Shown piece by piece: positions 3,001-9,000 of a stretch of 20,549 nt of DNA. A program made the position numbers. This DNA comes from Elusimicrobiota bacterium (GTDB taxonomy: Bacteria > Elusimicrobiota > Elusimicrobia > Elusimicrobiales > UBA9959): positions 1-20,549 of the forward strand of contig JBAXKK010000044.1 of assembly GCA_037137395.1 (NCBI GenBank), read 5' to 3'. The first letter of the stretch is position 1. Each line of letters begins with the position of its first letter.

Positions 3001-6000
3001 CGGCCGCGGGAGAACCATCAATCGCGACAGTTTTGGCCTGTTGCCGGTTTTTTTCAAGCAGATTATTGGCGATATCGTGTATGCGGTTAACGGCATGACG
3101 CACCATAACACGCTTCTTTTCCGGCAACTCCGCCGTATCTTTAAGCGCCACGTCCAACGCCACCAGGGGAGAACGTATGTCATGCGCCACCTGCGCGGCC
3201 AAATCTGATGTGGCTTTTGAAACGGCCAGTTCGCTCTCGAACTGAGCAGCTTGGCTAAGCGCTACGCTCATGCGGTCCGTCATCTGCGCGAAAGGCGTGC
3301 CAATGATGCCAGCAGGCAAGCTGTTGATGTGTTTTTTTATGGAATCACGGATTATATTGCTTTGACCGGAGGATGTTATAGCGTTTATCTCGTTAACAGA
3401 TCGCTCTATGGCTAATAAAGTCTGTATAGCACCAAGATTAGAAATAGCAAGCAAACCTAGGAAGAATAGAACCACGGTGATGAATAGGACATAATTTTGA
3501 GCAAACACCGAGGCATTAACGTCAACCAGATCTATAACATATTCAAGCCGTCCCAGCTCCGCGCCATTGGAAACAAAAGGCATATTATGAGCCATCTGTA
3601 CGCGGGGCCGGTCATAGAGATTACCGATTACAGCTTCTTTAAATATCCATTTACTGCCTTCAAACCCAATGGGACGGAAAGTGATGCGCTTTATATTGTC
3701 GTTCTTTATGCGCCACATTATACGTTGGGTCTCAAAAACATCGCCCTCAAGAAAAGCTTTTTCAAAATAGGCCGCATTCTGCCGCATCGCAGTCAGAAGC
3801 TTGTCATCGGCCACCCGTACTGCCGAGAATACCGAGAATATCTGCCAGAAAGCTACAAACGCCAATACTGACACGGCATAATGCCGCCAGTTATAAGCAA
3901 GTATCCGCACAAAAAATTTTACCATCTAAACTCCGCCACCTCGGGATATTCCGTAAATCCTTTCCCGACAATTAAATTTTTAATATTCTCCGGGTAATAG
4001 AATTTTTCCACTTCCTGGAAAAGCGGCAAAACAGCGTATCTTTTCCCCAGCCCATCGGCGATCCTTTCAGCCATCCCCGCCGCAACAGGCCCCTCTTCCT
4101 CTTTAACCATCTTTTCGAGCAAAGCGGTCAACTCCGGCATATTAAAATCCACCAGACTGTCCTTCACAAGAAAATCCCTGAAAAAAATGTCATATTCGGG
4201 CTGCACAACGCTGAAATTTATCAAAACCATATCATATGGGTGCGGGCGGACAAAAAGCGTTTTAACGAGTTCCTGCACCTCATATTGCTTTATCTTTATT
4301 CGTATCCCGGTCTTACTGTGAAATTTTGCGGCAAACGCTTCCAGCGGGACCCGGCTTTCTTTCCTCCAATTCGCTAATATGAACGGTTTTAGCGTTTTGG
4401 CTCTTTCCAGGTAGGAATTACGGCATTCCTGCTGAGGCCTGCCGGAGTGCCCGCCGGGAATACCCATAGGTAGGAGCGTTTGAATATCATACAACTGTTT
4501 GGAATTAGGAAAAGCCGCCTGCCTGAATCCAGAGATATCGAAACAGTTATACAGAATCTCCCTGGATGTTTTATCCGGACTCGTCAAGATCAACCCCGAG
4601 GATTTTAACGGGACACTTTCAAACGATAAGAACCGTTCGGAAACCGTTTCCGGCAATACGCCATAAGGAACCCGGTTGAAATCGCTTAAATCTTTTCTCT
4701 CAAGGTTCCCTGAGAAATCCACATACTCCCATAGGCTTATTCGTTCATAACCCTTAGCGACAGATTTCTTCCGCTTCAAGACAATCTCGTTTTTTCCGAT
4801 GTTTTCTACCGAGAAAGGCCCCAAGCCCAGTTCCACATTCTCGCTGACTCCGAGAGTCGGCGCATTGACATACCGGGTCAGAAAATTCAAATAGCCTGTT
4901 TTCTTTTTTTTAAAGCTGACATCAAGACATTCTCCGGAGCGCACAATAGAAAAGTCAGGGGAGTATCTCCGTGTTACCGTCAGCAGGTATGTTTCGAAGT
5001 AGTCCAGAGAAAAGTTTTGCTTTTCATCGAATTTTTGACCCGTATCGGGGCAAAACACATATTTTGAGGAATCGACGCTTCGGGACCATTTTTTAAGGAT
5101 TCGCGATGAAAAGTTTTCACCGTCGTCCATCCTGAACAACGGCTCATGCGTCTGCTTGAGTATATAGAAAACCGCGTCCTCGTCAGCCAATGATGTAGAC
5201 ACTTTTTTTGGCAACCCGGGAAGATAAACGCCCCAAACTGGTGCCCCGGCTGCGGCCGAAGAATGCCCCGCCATAACCGAAAACATAACCATACAGGCGA
5301 CATATGCCCACGTTTTATTTTTCACGCTACTGAAATATATCGGCATAGTTTTTGCGGCCAGCCACGGCCGGCAAGCAGCATAAAATCGTATCAAACAGCC
5401 ACCTAACCTACCCGGTCAAATAAAAGGTCTTTTACCCGGCCGGCCCCAAGCTTAAACCCGGCGCACCTGCCGGCTCTTTCCCCAGAAAAACGCAGAGAGA
5501 GCCAACCCGCCGAAAACAAGTCGCCCTGAAGAAGTCGAATTTCCTCTTTTGGGGCATTCTTTCTTTCCAAGAACAGTTTTCCTTTTTCCGGCACAATGTT
5601 GTATTTAATATCCAACTCTTTACTGTAATACTGGCCGGCACAAGCCCGGCTTTTTTCCCCCGAAATAGCCGGTGGGGTTATTTTTTTATAAGTCTCTTCC
5701 TTTCCTGTGCGCTCCTTGACCAAAGCCGTTCCGGCGCCCTTATTCCTTCCAGCGCAGAATGTTATATCAAAAGCGCCTCCCGTACGGGTAAAATGATATG
5801 GACCCACCGGCTCAAGCATATAGTTCCCGCCACCTGAACTATAAAACAGATTCCCGTCCTTTGTTAATATTTCCAGGAAATCCTCGCTTTCGGTGTTTAA
5901 GTAAACGCCTTCGATCTCTTTCATTTTACCTATTGAGGCCGGAGAGGCGCGTTTTGCGACCGGCCTAAGCGGAATACCGGTCATTTCCCCGCCTAGACAG

Positions 6001-9000
6001 ATATCCGTTATCTGCCAGGCAATACGCGCAGGGTTCGCCTGACTGAAATTGGAAAGGCAGATCACGGAAAAATTTTTCTGCGGAAATCGCAGAATTTCAG
6101 TTCTATAACCTATCCACGCTCCTCCATGAGTTATCGTTTTAAGGCCCCTGTACGTGCCGAGAAACAAGCCGTGCGCATAATTTAATTCTGTGCCGTCATC
6201 AAGACGACCTGTTGTAGTTATTTTTTCTATCAGTTTTTGGCCGCCTCCGGCCAGCTTGTTATGGTAGAAATTCTGGTCCCAAAGGAACAAGTCCTCCACC
6301 GTGGTATTCACACCCCCGTCCCCGACCACGTCAAAAATGGAGAAATCCGCCCTGACCCCGTCCAGCTCGACAGAATAGCCGGAGGCCCGGTTCTTCACAA
6401 TCGAGGTAAACACATCGTGGAAATGGGTATTCTTCATACCAAGAGGGGAAAAGATATTTTCTTCAGCAAATTCCCGCAGTGACTTTCCGGAAACGCGTTT
6501 TACCACCACGCCGAGCAACAGATAGCCGGAGTTGCAATACAGGAATTCCGCGCCCGGCCTGAAATTCGGGTCGCGTTGTTTTGAAATAAGCCCGATTATC
6601 TCTTCTTCCGGGTACTCATTTTCATACCGCATCCCGGCAAGGTCCATAAGGGTCAAATAATCCCTTATACCGCTTATGTGATGTATTAAATGCCGTAACG
6701 TGACAGGATACTTGTACAAACGCATTTCCGGTATATATTTCTGCACAGGGTCTTCAAGATTAAGCCGTCCCTTTTTCTCAAGGATAGCTATACAGAACGC
6801 AACAAATTGTTTCGAGGTGGATCCGATATCAAACACCGACCTGGAAGAGATCGGGATATTGTGTTCCAGATTGGCCATTCCATAGCCGTGTTTATAAACA
6901 ATTTTTCCGTTATCCACTATCCCCAAAGCATATCCGGGAGAGCCGGGCTTATCACATTCAGAAAATAAACTGTCAATTTTATCGATATCCACTGGTTTCA
7001 TAAACGCGTAACCTCTTGATTCTTTTTTGCCGAAGACAGTATCCCGGGGACGATATACTCGCATAACGCGCAGGGCGCGGAGTGTTCCCGAGACAAGCTG
7101 TCTTTTGATAGTCCGGCCATCCGTACAAGCTCGCCGAATGTGTGGCGGGAAACTAATTTATAGAACCGACTGCGCAAATGTGCCGCTATCGTCCGGTGCA
7201 CATACCTACTGTTCCCGGGCTTAGAAGCAAGAAAACCACAGCAGATGGTGAATCCGCGTCCGCAATTATAAACGAGCCGCCCGATATTCGGACATTTTTT
7301 CCGCAGCACCTTCGCCTCGAAAGCGGGGTATGAATAGTTAAGAGCGCTATACTTGGCGCGGCCTATAGGTAAAATCTTCTGGGTCGTAACGGGCACGCCT
7401 ACAAGCTTTAATTTGTTCAGGAAGATCAGGTCCAACGGCGCCTGTATGGCGCATACGAGGCCAAAAGAAAGGTTTAATTCGCGGCATGCTGCCTGCAGGT
7501 TATGGATACAGGTTTCGGGAACAAATTCCGCGTGGAATTTGTCATATGACATTTGCACACTGTTCAGCGCTTTAAAAGACTTGAGGGTTTTTACGGCCAA
7601 TGCAGGGGTAGAGGCAAAATAACCGTTCGTGATGATACTTATATGAATTTTATCCGTCCTATCTATTGAGGAAAGTATGCTGTTTATTTCTCCGGTAAAA
7701 AGAACCGGCTCCCCTCCCGTAAAGATCAGTTCCCGCGGCTTATTTCTATTTATCGCCGAAACCAGAAGCTCTATCTCTGATTTTGTAATTCTGCGGATGC
7801 CAAGATTTTTATCTACAAGACAATGTCGGCACCGAATATTACACGCGGTGCCGACTGTTATCCCCAGATCAAGCTTATGCTTAAGACTCATCCATGCTTC
7901 ACGACGCGAAGAGGCTCCGAGTCTCCAATTTCCTGAAGATCATTCGAAGCTAAAATACTGAGCTCCGTTTTTTGCACATCTGAAAGAGCCTTTACATACT
8001 GCATAGCATTGCACACGGAAAAAAGCCCCACTGAAACCAGGAAAGCCGCTATTACTTTATCTTTGTTTGTCATTTTATTTTTCCCTTAATATCTACATTC
8101 TGCCATTTTTACGGCTGCACTTCAACTCTCTCTTTTGTCTCTTTTATCACTCTGGCCTAAGCGCCCCGGATTAATGAAAAGCGGACAATATAGATTACCC
8201 GAAATATCCCCGCTCTGTAAGGGCCTTTGGACCCAGAACCAGAATGGGTCCTTGTATACTTTTATTTTTCCGCATAGAATAACTGCGAGCCGGGAAAGGT
8301 TCCGGCACACGCATATTGCGCCGAGATCGTGACCTGCTGTTTACCGACATCCACGGCGACCAGATGTTGTGGCCTTGATAGAACCGCCAGTATAAATATG
8401 GCTGATATACCCACCAACACCGCTTTAATTGTTCTCCGTTTCATTGTTTCTCCACTTCGTTATATTTGCCTACGCCTCGTACGGAGCAATTTTTATAGCA
8501 GATATCAAATTTAATTGCCTTCATTGGGAAAATTCGAAAATCCGGGATGCAAAGAATTTAAAAACCAGACAAAAACGCTTCGTTTTGAGATAACTATTCT
8601 CATTTTGACAAACCATATCAATGCAAACTTGCGGCATCTCCTTTCTTGGAAAAGTATAAATACCGGTCAACTTGCTTAAAACCCAATGATTTATAGAGTC
8701 CAAGGGCAGCAGTGTTTGTTGCCCAGGTTTGGATAAAATAAGTTTTACCAGGGGCTTTTCTCAACAGATTAGCGAGAAACCATCGCCCGATTCCGGCGCC
8801 CCGGAATTCCTTAGCAATAAACAAATCAAATATCCCGATAAAACGCTTAAACCTCAGCAAATTAATTCTCCCGACCAGCGTTTTTCCTTTCAGCAGTCTT
8901 ATCGGCGAAAATGCCCCGACTGAAAAATCCCGGTTCAGGTCGTACTTATTATTTTCAATCCACCTTTGCGGCTTAGACTCCTCTATCCTCAAATCATCTA

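Follow-up and report, generated by a model that had tools for sequence, protein, structure and literature searches.

What does a radical SAM enzyme make of the short peptide encoded directly before it in an uncultured Elusimicrobia bacterium, and is the product a bioactive compound or a signal? We examined a stretch of 20,549 nucleotides (the window, meaning the whole of the DNA analyzed). Its minus strand encodes a 61 aa precursor peptide (7888..8073), a 297 aa EpeE/YydG-like radical SAM enzyme (rSAM; 6998..7891), a 532 aa S12 beta-lactamase-fold protein with the layout of D-aminopeptidase (5403..7001) and a putative orphan class-5 (OppA/DppA/NikA-type) solute-binding protein (SBP; 3919..5346). 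These four genes had been described as an operon in the initial annotation, and all are present where it placed them, with ATGA overlaps between peptide and rSAM and between rSAM and S12. The SBP has 455 aa from the ATG chosen there; from the ATG at 5346 it has 475 aa and a complete N-terminal signal peptide. The annotation omitted a 718 aa membrane histidine kinase (1769..3925, minus strand), whose gene overlaps the SBP stop; the operon extends past the SBP into the kinase. The gene layout predicts that peptide, rSAM, S12 peptidase, SBP and kinase, which mostly overlap, are co-transcribed. Compared with L001, the closest locus here, the rSAM is 83.5% identical, as first reported, and the S12 protein 81.8% rather than 83.7%.

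The peptide consists of a signal-peptide-like hydrophobic leader (residues 1-23), an amphipathic leader helix (24-43) and a variable tail, the proposed core (44-61; 7891..7944, minus strand), which carries R56-V57. This leader/core pattern, proposed at the outset, holds across 28 database proteins and 43 genomic copies. In 20 complete cassettes, mean identity is 60% for residues 1-23, 33% for residues 24-43 and 17% for the tail. The tail is conserved within a type (residues 49-60 are 93% identical among 11 close relatives), and synonymous codon changes in the peptide outnumber non-synonymous ones relative to L001 and L002. Of 43 peptides, 39 have Ala at position 23 and 33 a small residue at position 21, and the N-terminus is hydrophobic enough to be a membrane helix. 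Read from its sequence, the window's tail is short and net acidic, with four acidic and two basic residues plus His. It contains no Cys, which occurs in 2/8 tails of the D-aminopeptidase-type loci and in 23/35 peptides of other types. R-[VLI] is found in the tails of 8/8 D-aminopeptidase-type loci versus 2/35 others. Neither Pfam nor NCBIfam has a family that matches the precursor. A peptide profile has 32 matches in 21 of 401 genomes, and because 30 of the 32 lie directly upstream of a cassette rSAM, the association is more than chance. One locus, L186, encodes a related leader with SBP and kinase, and lacks both the rSAM and the second helix.

The model of the peptide-rSAM complex scored 0.87 (best control, 0.01). 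In it, the leader docks outside the enzyme and the tail enters the barrel, where residues 46-59 make contacts that include C218. At least 70% of contacts are shared between its runs, and the partner has a pLDDT of at least 80; 116 of 157 solved pairs and 2 of 215 mismatched pairs reached the mark, but the job differed from this calibration in using its own alignments and ligands. The pass may partly reflect solved EpeE-peptide structures. A signal-like leader had been considered an objection to a RiPP; we drop the objection because the same leader is the docking site in the model. Features general to RiPP precursors are present: a leader conserved and placed at the maturase, a variable core in the modeled active site, and an adjacent maturase gene. 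The near one-to-one gene pairing and the predicted complex support identification of the peptide as a leader-core precursor and substrate-like partner of the rSAM.

The nearest solved relative of the rSAM is EpeE (YydG), as originally suggested, both by sequence (profile E 5e-27, next 1e-9) and by fold (TM about 0.7), at only 17-20% sequence identity. Viperin-like nucleotide enzymes are the next sequence matches, 17 orders of E-value behind. TIGR04078 (rSAM_yydG) matches at 5.1e-19 and 68.9 bits, short of its curated cut-off of 300; it matched three of five other family members (61-71 bits, one at 86) and gave no match to two at E 1e-8. The enzyme has CxxxCxxC (C17/21/24), C200, C217-C218 and C274/C277, a radical SAM core with four further cysteines, as in T-SPASM enzymes. 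C200, C217, C274 and C277 are invariant in 46/46 homologues and align with EpeE C206, C222, C289 and C292, the cluster ligands there (the D210A entry sets an offset of 25 for EpeE numbering). C218 aligns with Cys223, described as the H-donor of EpeE in PMC13012085. Cysteine occupies this position in 40/46 and 73/80 homologues in two sets, and Asp in 6/46. EpeE Asp210 is not kept (G204/R205 here), and the position is variable across the family, which includes homologues named from Bdellovibrionota besides Elusimicrobia. Analogy with EpeE suggests L-to-D epimerization. Because Asp210 is not kept, Asp occurs at the Cys223 site in some homologues and both the rSAM and the S12 protein fall far below curated cut-offs, we infer a D-residue product rather than assert one.

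The S12 protein is D-aminopeptidase-like, in agreement with the initial annotation. It has the three-domain layout, the motifs S61-x-x-K64, Y155-C-N and H292-G-G align with D-aminopeptidase, and the match to NF009622 (3.6e-45, 154.4 bits; curated cut-off 443 not reached) continues beyond the catalytic domain to cover C-terminal domains as well. Its closest solved relatives include D-aminopeptidase (1EI5) and alkaline D-peptidase (4Y7P), as well as the S12 peptidase 2QMI. The loop that presumably sets aminopeptidase specificity in D-aminopeptidase falls beyond the part aligned here. By analogy, the activity may be D-stereospecific. Neither a signal peptide nor a membrane helix was found. Of six orthologues matched in 401 genomes, five are inside the cassette and the sixth is beside a kinase fragment. 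The gene had been regarded as the hallmark of the system; instead, it fills a swappable slot, occurring in 8/42 loci that form one clade and whose tails share R-[VLI]. Other slot occupants are GNAT-like, transglutaminase-like and M3 proteins.

The SBP is predicted to adopt the class-5 solute-binding protein fold (OppA/DppA/NikA; Atlas 0.98). Its AlphaFold model (pLDDT 85) has Foldseek matches (E 1e-22) that, among those listed, are all class 5, the best listed TM being 0.74 to AapF (7KZ9), bound to a signal molecule. The window SBP itself has no Pfam match, and the PF00496 class is assigned by fold. No permease genes were found beside it. In the kinase, two membrane helices flank a periplasmic part of about 110 aa and are followed by HisKA, HATPase_c and C-terminal receiver-like domains. 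Convergent with it is a response regulator with a sigma-54 activator domain (GAFTGA; 233..1618, plus strand); the 98.9%-complete genome contains no second strong match. The regulator's output partner is probably the product of a divergent sigma-54 gene (16972..18075, minus strand), the sole one found in this genome. Many loci have sigma-54-type sites after the kinase gene. A 63-aa ORF between regulator and kinase (1581..1772, plus strand), with homologues at 4 other loci, resembles a HisKA helix pair by eye only.

Comparison across loci, which are related and not independent observations, points to peptide-rSAM-SBP-kinase as the constant unit. Among rSAM-anchored loci, the peptide lies directly before the rSAM in 32/35, the SBP is present in 29/29 whose contig reaches it, and the kinase in 26/28 (35/38 overall; L044, L053 and L202 lack an intact one). 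In the reverse test, starting from new SBP loci, peptide and rSAM were found in 11/13 informative loci and the kinase in 9/10 of those whose contig continues past the SBP; SBP loci without rSAM are L186 and L191. A distant rSAM family member at L065 is also coupled to an SBP_bac_5 gene. That this unit is conserved favors a signal over a stand-alone natural product. Mean identities are 17% for the tail, 43% for the rSAM and 40% for the SBP, versus 76% for the periplasmic and 63% for the catalytic part of the kinase. Clades of the rSAM tree recur in the SBP tree but not in the kinase tree. At the same-genus locus L051, identities are 41% (rSAM), 39% (SBP), 80% (kinase catalytic part) and 92% (regulator). 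Tail identity is only weakly correlated with SBP identity (0.22). As far as such comparisons reach, tail, rSAM and SBP appear to diverge together over a conserved periplasmic kinase part, as in pheromone types.

A 2'-dG-II riboswitch (RF03165) precedes 33/43 loci, and in most relatives it would gate the cassette, in an ON-type layout. It has been lost from the window copy. No RF03165 aptamer reaches the gathering score in the window, and the shortened equivalent of the relatives' aptamer/terminator stretch (8126..8191, minus strand) is without an Rfam match, its aptamer likeness not being significant on its own (58 to 941 of 2000 shuffles). Homology to the riboswitch-bearing relatives was thought to begin only after the terminator; however, the similarity also takes in a palindromic box and a -10-like element on the upstream side of the aptamer position. 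These belong to a distal promoter-like element, P1 (8192..8251, minus strand), a palindromic box with -35/-10-like hexamers that is kept upstream of the relatives' aptamer (strict pattern in 13/29 loci having at least 500 upstream bases). A proximal sigma-70-like promoter, P2 (8097..8125, minus strand), places its -35/-10 just before the ribosome-binding site; it is below a generic scanner's threshold, and its pattern is found in 22/31 loci examined. Further upstream, a sigma-54-like -24/-12 site (8486..8500, minus strand), with an activator-like motif about 105 bases beyond it, precedes a 60-aa secreted-type ORF (8262..8444, minus strand), a homologue of which precedes the cassette in L051. 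Transcription from this site could read through into the cassette.

The best reading, which we consider reasonably likely, is a peptide-signaling, quorum-sensing-like cassette built on a RiPP pathway and feeding a sigma-54 activator. The rSAM would, very probably on the strength of the complex model, bind the leader and hold the tail in its active site. It would then, with some likelihood by analogy to EpeE, abstract hydrogen from the C-alpha of a residue in the tail, with C218 returning hydrogen to the other face to give a D-residue; our guess is an aliphatic one, for example V57, which follows R56. Release and export of a short product are a step we would accept or doubt with equal readiness. 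Residues 1-23 may be a Sec signal cleaved after A23, or the cytoplasmic S12 peptidase, if D-specific, may cut beside the D-residue, the product then using a general exporter; alternatively, this peptidase could degrade the signal intracellularly. No exporter is encoded in the cassette, and an S12 enzyme in the cytoplasm could act on a Sec-exported precursor only with particular timing. The orphan SBP would then, as seems likely, capture the peptide in the periplasm and dock on the kinase. The kinase would phosphorylate the activator, thereby activating sigma-54 promoters of genes for secreted proteins, of further RiPP clusters and perhaps, at this locus, of the cassette. Exchange of tail, rSAM, slot enzyme and SBP as one block may let a single kinase serve many signal types. 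A quorum-sensing circuit is compatible with both gene content and divergence. A sigma-54 site within 800 bases upstream of the peptide gene is found in only 6/32 loci, the window included, and autoinduction is therefore not general. As a whole, we propose only tentatively that this is diderm quorum sensing by a ribosomal peptide with a D-residue, in which an EpeE-like epimerase acts on a leader that is both docking site and Sec signal, a D-specific S12 enzyme, in this subtype, releases or quenches the product, an orphan OppA-type SBP recognizes it and couples to a conserved kinase with its sigma-54 activator, block exchange creates pheromone types and a 2'-deoxyguanosine riboswitch is usually in control.

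Signaling need not involve epimerization. If the rSAM instead formed a thioether or other crosslink, or cleaved the backbone, and S12 were a generic trimming peptidase, this would account for the frequent Cys in peptides of other types, the absence of D210, the occasional Asp at the Cys223 equivalent, the low identity to EpeE and the varied slot occupants. We regard this as unlikely: the window tail has no Cys and few D-aminopeptidase-type tails do, all EpeE cysteine positions, the vicinal pair among them, are retained, and the D-specific peptidases among the closest solved relatives of S12 argue against generic trimming. The initial annotation envisaged an epipeptide-like bioactive RiPP, for example an antimicrobial, defined by the D-aminopeptidase and with SBP and kinase as passengers or a self-protection sensor. 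EpeE makes an antimicrobial epipeptide, according to PMC13012085; the island around the locus holds two further rSAM/SPASM RiPP clusters with MFS exporters, and S12 orthologues are almost exclusive to the cassette. However, SBP and kinase are nearly constant and S12 is not, the tail is short and net acidic, the cassette contains no ABC exporter or M50 protease gene, and the pattern of divergence is what a receptor of exchangeable specificity would give, which together make this reading rather improbable.

It is more improbable still that the small protein serves as an accessory or regulator anchored in the membrane and that the rSAM acts on a small molecule, such as a guanine nucleoside, sensed by the SBP. 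The hydrophobic N-terminus, the prevalence of the 2'-dG-II riboswitch and the viperin-like matches would suit it, but the model has the tail threaded into the barrel, tail motifs track rSAM clades, and EpeE is far ahead of viperin. Moreover, 3/4 of the genome's other 2'-dG-II riboswitches over the cut-off precede, by eye, secreted-type proteins of unknown family, not recognizable nucleoside enzymes.

The signaling reading has partial parallels in known systems. agrBDCA and comQXPA are peptide quorum-sensing systems with pheromone types, in which specificity parts of precursor, maturase and receptor co-vary over a conserved signaling core. Here, in contrast, the host is diderm, specificity would be held by a separate class-5 SBP and not by the kinase, the maturase is an rSAM and output is via sigma-54. 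Vibrio LuxP-LuxQ-LuxO is a binding-protein/kinase sensor and, with AapF, resembles the combination of an orphan periplasmic SBP, a membrane kinase and a sigma-54 activator; the ligand proposed here differs in being a ribosomal, enzyme-modified peptide from the same operon. epeXEPAB (yydFGHIJ) of Bacillus subtilis likewise has a leader-core precursor directly before a compact rSAM, and EpeE (8AI1-8AI6) shares the fold and cysteine layout. The leader here is hydrophobic and signal-like, however, the hypervariable core is unrelated, and SBP and kinase stand in place of the M50 protease and ABC transporter. A literature search found no description of a peptide-rSAM-SBP-kinase cassette.

If the proposal is correct, a D-amino-acid peptide would be a signal and not an antibiotic. 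EpeE-type epimerases, with one characterized member so far and, like epipeptides, said in PMC13012085 to be confined to Bacillota, would extend to a diverse diderm family, here in Elusimicrobia, with dozens of natural substrate variants. The S12 family would join the RiPP processing enzymes; neither 'S12' nor 'lactamase' occurs in a review of RiPP leader proteases (PMC10885120). The 2'-dG-II riboswitch, of which just 12 examples, metagenomic and taxonomically unassigned, were known in 2017 (PMC5473149), gains a host lineage and target genes. All steps are open to study in vitro, using purified proteins and synthetic peptides, with no need for a culture. For diderm bacteria such as this one, the cassette would amount to a modular form of peptide quorum sensing, in which the SBP provides specificity and the kinase is shared.

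The positions and minus-strand orientation of the four genes named in the initial annotation were confirmed. These genes encode a 61-aa peptide (7888..8073), a 297-aa radical SAM enzyme (rSAM, 6998..7891), a 532-aa S12 protein (5403..7001) and a class-5 solute-binding protein (SBP, 3919..5346). ATGA overlaps join the peptide gene to the rSAM gene and the rSAM gene to the S12 gene, and the SBP stop codon overlaps the start of a gene for a 718-aa histidine kinase (1769..3925). A gene for a sigma-54-type response regulator (233..1618, plus strand) is convergent with the kinase gene. 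The genome is 98.9% complete with 7.7% contamination, and the window is one entire contig of it. The cassette is unlikely to be a contaminant of the assembly, because the named relatives' loci are from Elusimicrobia in 4/4 cases and the cassette is also present in same-genus genomes.

An rSAM search gave 33 matches in 21 of 401 genomes of the phylum, all within two families; with L002 and L001, the closest locus compared, these make 35 distinct loci. The peptide gene is directly upstream in 32; of the other three, two are additional rSAM copies next to TldD/PmbA genes, and the third begins at a contig end. A peptide profile gave 32 matches in 21 of the 401 genomes (30 directly before rSAM, one at a contig end and one in the variant locus L186). 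Few of the genomes drawn by a class-level SBP search belonged to the family (3 of 121), and a family-level search was used in its place. The latter matched in 31 of 71 family genomes and yielded 14 further loci, L186 among them (L205, the same as L001, was left out). Thirteen of the 14 are informative, and peptide and rSAM genes lie upstream in 11 of these. SBP is present in all 29 rSAM-anchored loci with a long enough contig. A kinase gene follows it in 26/28 rSAM-anchored and 9/10 SBP-anchored loci; the exceptions are a remnant in L044 and none in L053 and L202.

There are 43 peptide-rSAM loci in all, and the gene position after rSAM, here called the slot, is visible in 42. It holds a D-aminopeptidase-like S12 gene in 8 loci, a different S12 gene in 3 (of which one is on the opposite strand), a gene for a GNAT-like protein of ~230 aa in 18, transglutaminase-like and TPR genes in 2 and an M3 peptidase gene in 1, and is empty in 10. 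The GNAT assignment is a weak one (a single Pfam match, E 7e-4, among 6 proteins scanned; PDB matches at E 0.01 and 0.5). The conserved unit is peptide, rSAM, slot, SBP and kinase. The initial annotation had made the D-aminopeptidase the defining partner, a role ruled out by its presence in only 8/42 loci; the hallmark is the binding protein with the kinase. A metagenome scan for distant contexts gave one true family member in 80 loci (L065), also coupled to an SBP_bac_5 gene; the remaining 79 contained radical SAM genes of a general kind and were excluded. Homologues are also named, by name only and with no gene context, from Halobacteriovorax and Bacteriovoracaceae (two of ten looked up).

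Several variants were seen. L186 (6754-8823) has a riboswitch, an 82-aa peptide, SBP and kinase without rSAM, and its peptide follows the same pattern for 26 residues before an acidic Gly/Cys tail. TldD/PmbA-type protease pairs, assigned by Pfam in L042 only and elsewhere by clustering or by eye, adjoin the cassette in L042, L048, L049, L058, L201, L202 and L203, where the slot is mostly empty; L042 and L058 each have an additional rSAM copy. Insertion sequences lie within or just upstream of cassettes in L003 (12728-13863), L046 and L200, and cassette remnants occur in L044, L185 and L191, in line with a mobile and often decaying module.

Residues 1-43 of the peptide are common to 28 database relatives and 43 genomic copies (61-70 aa), and the sequences diverge beyond residue 43. 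Across 20 complete cassettes, mean pairwise identity is 60% for residues 1-23, 33% for residues 24-43 and 17% for the tail (44-61), the proposed core. Among 11 close relatives, tail residues 49-60 are 93% identical, equal to the best part of the leader; thus the tail is kept within a type and differs between types. Synonymous codon changes exceed non-synonymous ones relative to L001 and L002. No Pfam or NCBIfam family matched the peptide. Residues 1-23, with a basic start, a hydrophobic stretch, Ala at position 23 (39/43) and a small residue at position 21 (33/43), look like a Sec signal. Membrane-embedded RiPP precursors are the subject of PMC13252029.

EpeE is the best match to rSAM by sequence in the PDB (E 9e-12), by profile (positions 6-286, E 5e-27; second-best match 1e-9) and by fold (AlphaFold model pLDDT 93, TM ~0.7, 17-20% identity). 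With the numbering offset of 25 established by the D210A entry, C200, C217, C218, C274 and C277 correspond to EpeE C206, C222, C223, C289 and C292. All except C218 are invariant in 46/46 homologues. At position 218, 40 of these have Cys and 6 have Asp, and Cys occurs in 73/80 of a wider set; the EpeE counterpart of this residue, Cys223, is the proposed hydrogen donor (PMC13012085). The equivalent of EpeE D210 is absent from rSAM. On this evidence rSAM is probably EpeE-like in action, yet outside TIGR04078 by score; the NCBIfam scores initially reported for rSAM and the S12 protein were reproduced. Asp at the Cys223-equivalent position occurs in L056, L057, L059, L060, L061, L058 (12840-13787) and L192. 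Several of these copies have a nitroreductase-family gene nearby, and they may perform a different chemistry. P0161, P0165, P0168, P0173 and others are proteins of ~490-500 aa with an N-terminal rSAM domain and ~200 further residues, for which Pfam gave no match in the four scanned. An 80-sequence rSAM tree was quick and poorly resolved, and no claims on origin are drawn from it.

Binding of the peptide by rSAM is predicted by a complex model scoring 0.87 (runs 0.87, 0.89 and 0.73) versus 0.01 for the best control, with at least 70% of contacts agreeing between runs and partner pLDDT of at least 80. The mark for such models was reached by 116/157 solved and 2/215 mismatched pairs in a calibration set up differently from this job, and solved EpeE-peptide complexes mean that the pass may partly be likeness. 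The closest modelled pairs place leader residues 12-41 on rSAM residues 151-159 and 188-192, among them P152, D154 and F191, which vary little or not at all. The modelled interface also takes in tail residues 46-59, C218 and strands of the barrel. Although conserved, residues 1-11 and A23 are absent from the listed contacts, where an unlisted residue is only uncertain; this would fit a second role in export. L186 retains a related leader up to Y26 with riboswitch, SBP and kinase and lacks both the second helix and rSAM, which supports a split between export and docking parts.

The motifs S61-x-x-K64, Y155-C-N and H292-G-G are present in the S12 protein, which lacks an export signal. Its nearest structures are 2QMI, which we take to be a D-specific enzyme, D-aminopeptidase 1EI5 (profile alignment over 20-476), a D-Ala-D-Ala carboxypeptidase and alkaline D-peptidase. 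Orthologues occur in 6/401 genomes, five times inside the cassette and once next to a kinase fragment. The 8 loci with D-aminopeptidase-like S12 coincide exactly with a single rSAM clade (support 1.0); R-[VLI] occurs in the tails of 8/8 of these versus 2/35 others. Being one lineage, they are not eight independent cases; sequence comparison shows a subtype whose enzyme, peptidase and tail occur as a set. Through this subtype the initial argument for a D-residue product stays alive for this locus, to which it is limited. The enzymology proposed with it is plausible and better supported than was stated there, its D-aminopeptidase hallmark excepted.

The SBP model (pLDDT 85) matched class-5 proteins only, the top among the matches listed being AapF with a bound signal molecule (TM 0.74), and Atlas also supports the class (0.98). 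No permease genes lie beside the SBP gene. Mean identity is 40% for SBP, 43% for rSAM, 63% for the catalytic part of the kinase and, highest, 76% for its periplasmic part. Identities of rSAM and SBP correlate at 0.51 and each with the kinase at -0.05 to -0.24; clades common to the rSAM and SBP trees are absent from the kinase tree (FastTree). Relative to same-genus L051, the window is 11% identical in the tail, 41% in rSAM, 39% in SBP, 80% in the kinase catalytic part and 92% in the regulator. Together these results look like a specificity block exchanged on a fixed signalling core; as the loci are related, no statistics are claimed. Co-variation of tail and SBP by pairwise identity was weak (0.22) and was dropped as proof. 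A 63-aa ORF after the regulator (1581-1772) has homologues at L045, L051, L062 and L186; by eye it looks like a pair of HisKA helices, and it is possibly a phosphotransfer or inhibitor protein.

A 2'-dG-II riboswitch precedes the peptide gene in 23/32 and 10/11 loci, and in L001 the 3' end of the aptamer forms part of the terminator, an ON layout. The window gave no riboswitch match at gathering or relaxed score. It keeps a palindromic box and a -10-like element upstream of the aptamer position and, as in 22/31 loci, a second promoter-like pattern downstream. Aptamer and terminator have been lost between these elements, as in same-genus L050. A decayed aptamer is hinted by position, but its likeness alone is not significant, so only loss is claimed; L051 has a decayed aptamer at 32 bits. 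Four further over-cut-off 2'-dG-II riboswitches occur in this genome (C105:1661, C159:1815, C80:2114 and C5:39353; L187-L190), three of them before secreted-type proteins of unknown family, and five genomes searched have 2 to 7 matches each.

In the window, a 60-aa ORF and the two other RiPP clusters are preceded by sigma-54-type sites that have a motif upstream of them; such sites also follow the kinase gene in many relatives. The site before the 60-aa ORF, at 8500, is followed by only a weak hairpin; feedback onto the cassette is therefore possible at this locus. General autoinduction via sigma-54 was rejected, with a site within 800 bases upstream in only 6/32 loci. A sigma-54-like match at 8116, just before the peptide gene, is not kept in relatives, overlaps a sigma-70-like pattern and was not accepted as a sigma-54 promoter. 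The sole sigma-54 gene found in the genome (16972-18075, minus strand) is on this island, and neither it nor the regulator has a further strong match elsewhere in the genome. A variant -24/-12 motif, with GC or CT for the usual GG, occurs at 16836, 12075, 8500 and 18086 (minus strand). Three of these four copies have a common upstream motif, and the genome has four strict matches, all of them on this contig.

Also present is a second RiPP-like cluster with a Cys-rich 68-aa peptide (11811-12017), an rSAM/SPASM protein, an MFS exporter and a GNAT protein (10543-11904, 9321-10580 and 8618-9331), with a sigma-54-like site ahead of it. A third has a 36-aa peptide with a Cys-rich tail end (16672-16782), an rSAM/SPASM protein closest to TIGR04463 (190 bits; cut-off 525), an MFS exporter and a tandem methyltransferase (15172-16668, 13871-15175 and 12283-13791).

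We consider it probable that the cassette makes, releases and senses a modified-peptide signal within one operon, with a sigma-54 output. The peptide would be epimerised by rSAM at a site presumably in the tail, then processed, exported and bound by SBP, and the kinase would pair with the regulator. That rSAM performs a chemistry other than epimerisation is rather unlikely, weighing the cysteines shared with EpeE together with the missing D210 equivalent and the Asp-type homologues. There is a small chance that the product is instead bioactive and epipeptide-like and that the sensor is a passenger; this reading would draw on the likeness to EpeE, and must accommodate an SBP gene in every sufficiently long rSAM-anchored locus and the rSAM-SBP correlation. 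It is very improbable that the substrate of rSAM is a small molecule, given that the modelled tail enters the rSAM barrel and that the tail motif follows the rSAM clade.

The agr, comQXPA and LuxPQ systems serve as comparisons for the favoured reading, a signal made and sensed by one operon. The cassette is real and apparently undescribed: a literature search, with most subscription papers outside its reach, found no description of it. We set it beside PMC13012085, PMC6847200, PMC9295807, PMC5473149 and PMC10885120. Compared with epipeptide systems and with binding-protein/kinase sensors, the cassette of these Elusimicrobia would join epipeptide-type maturation with binding-protein/kinase sensing.
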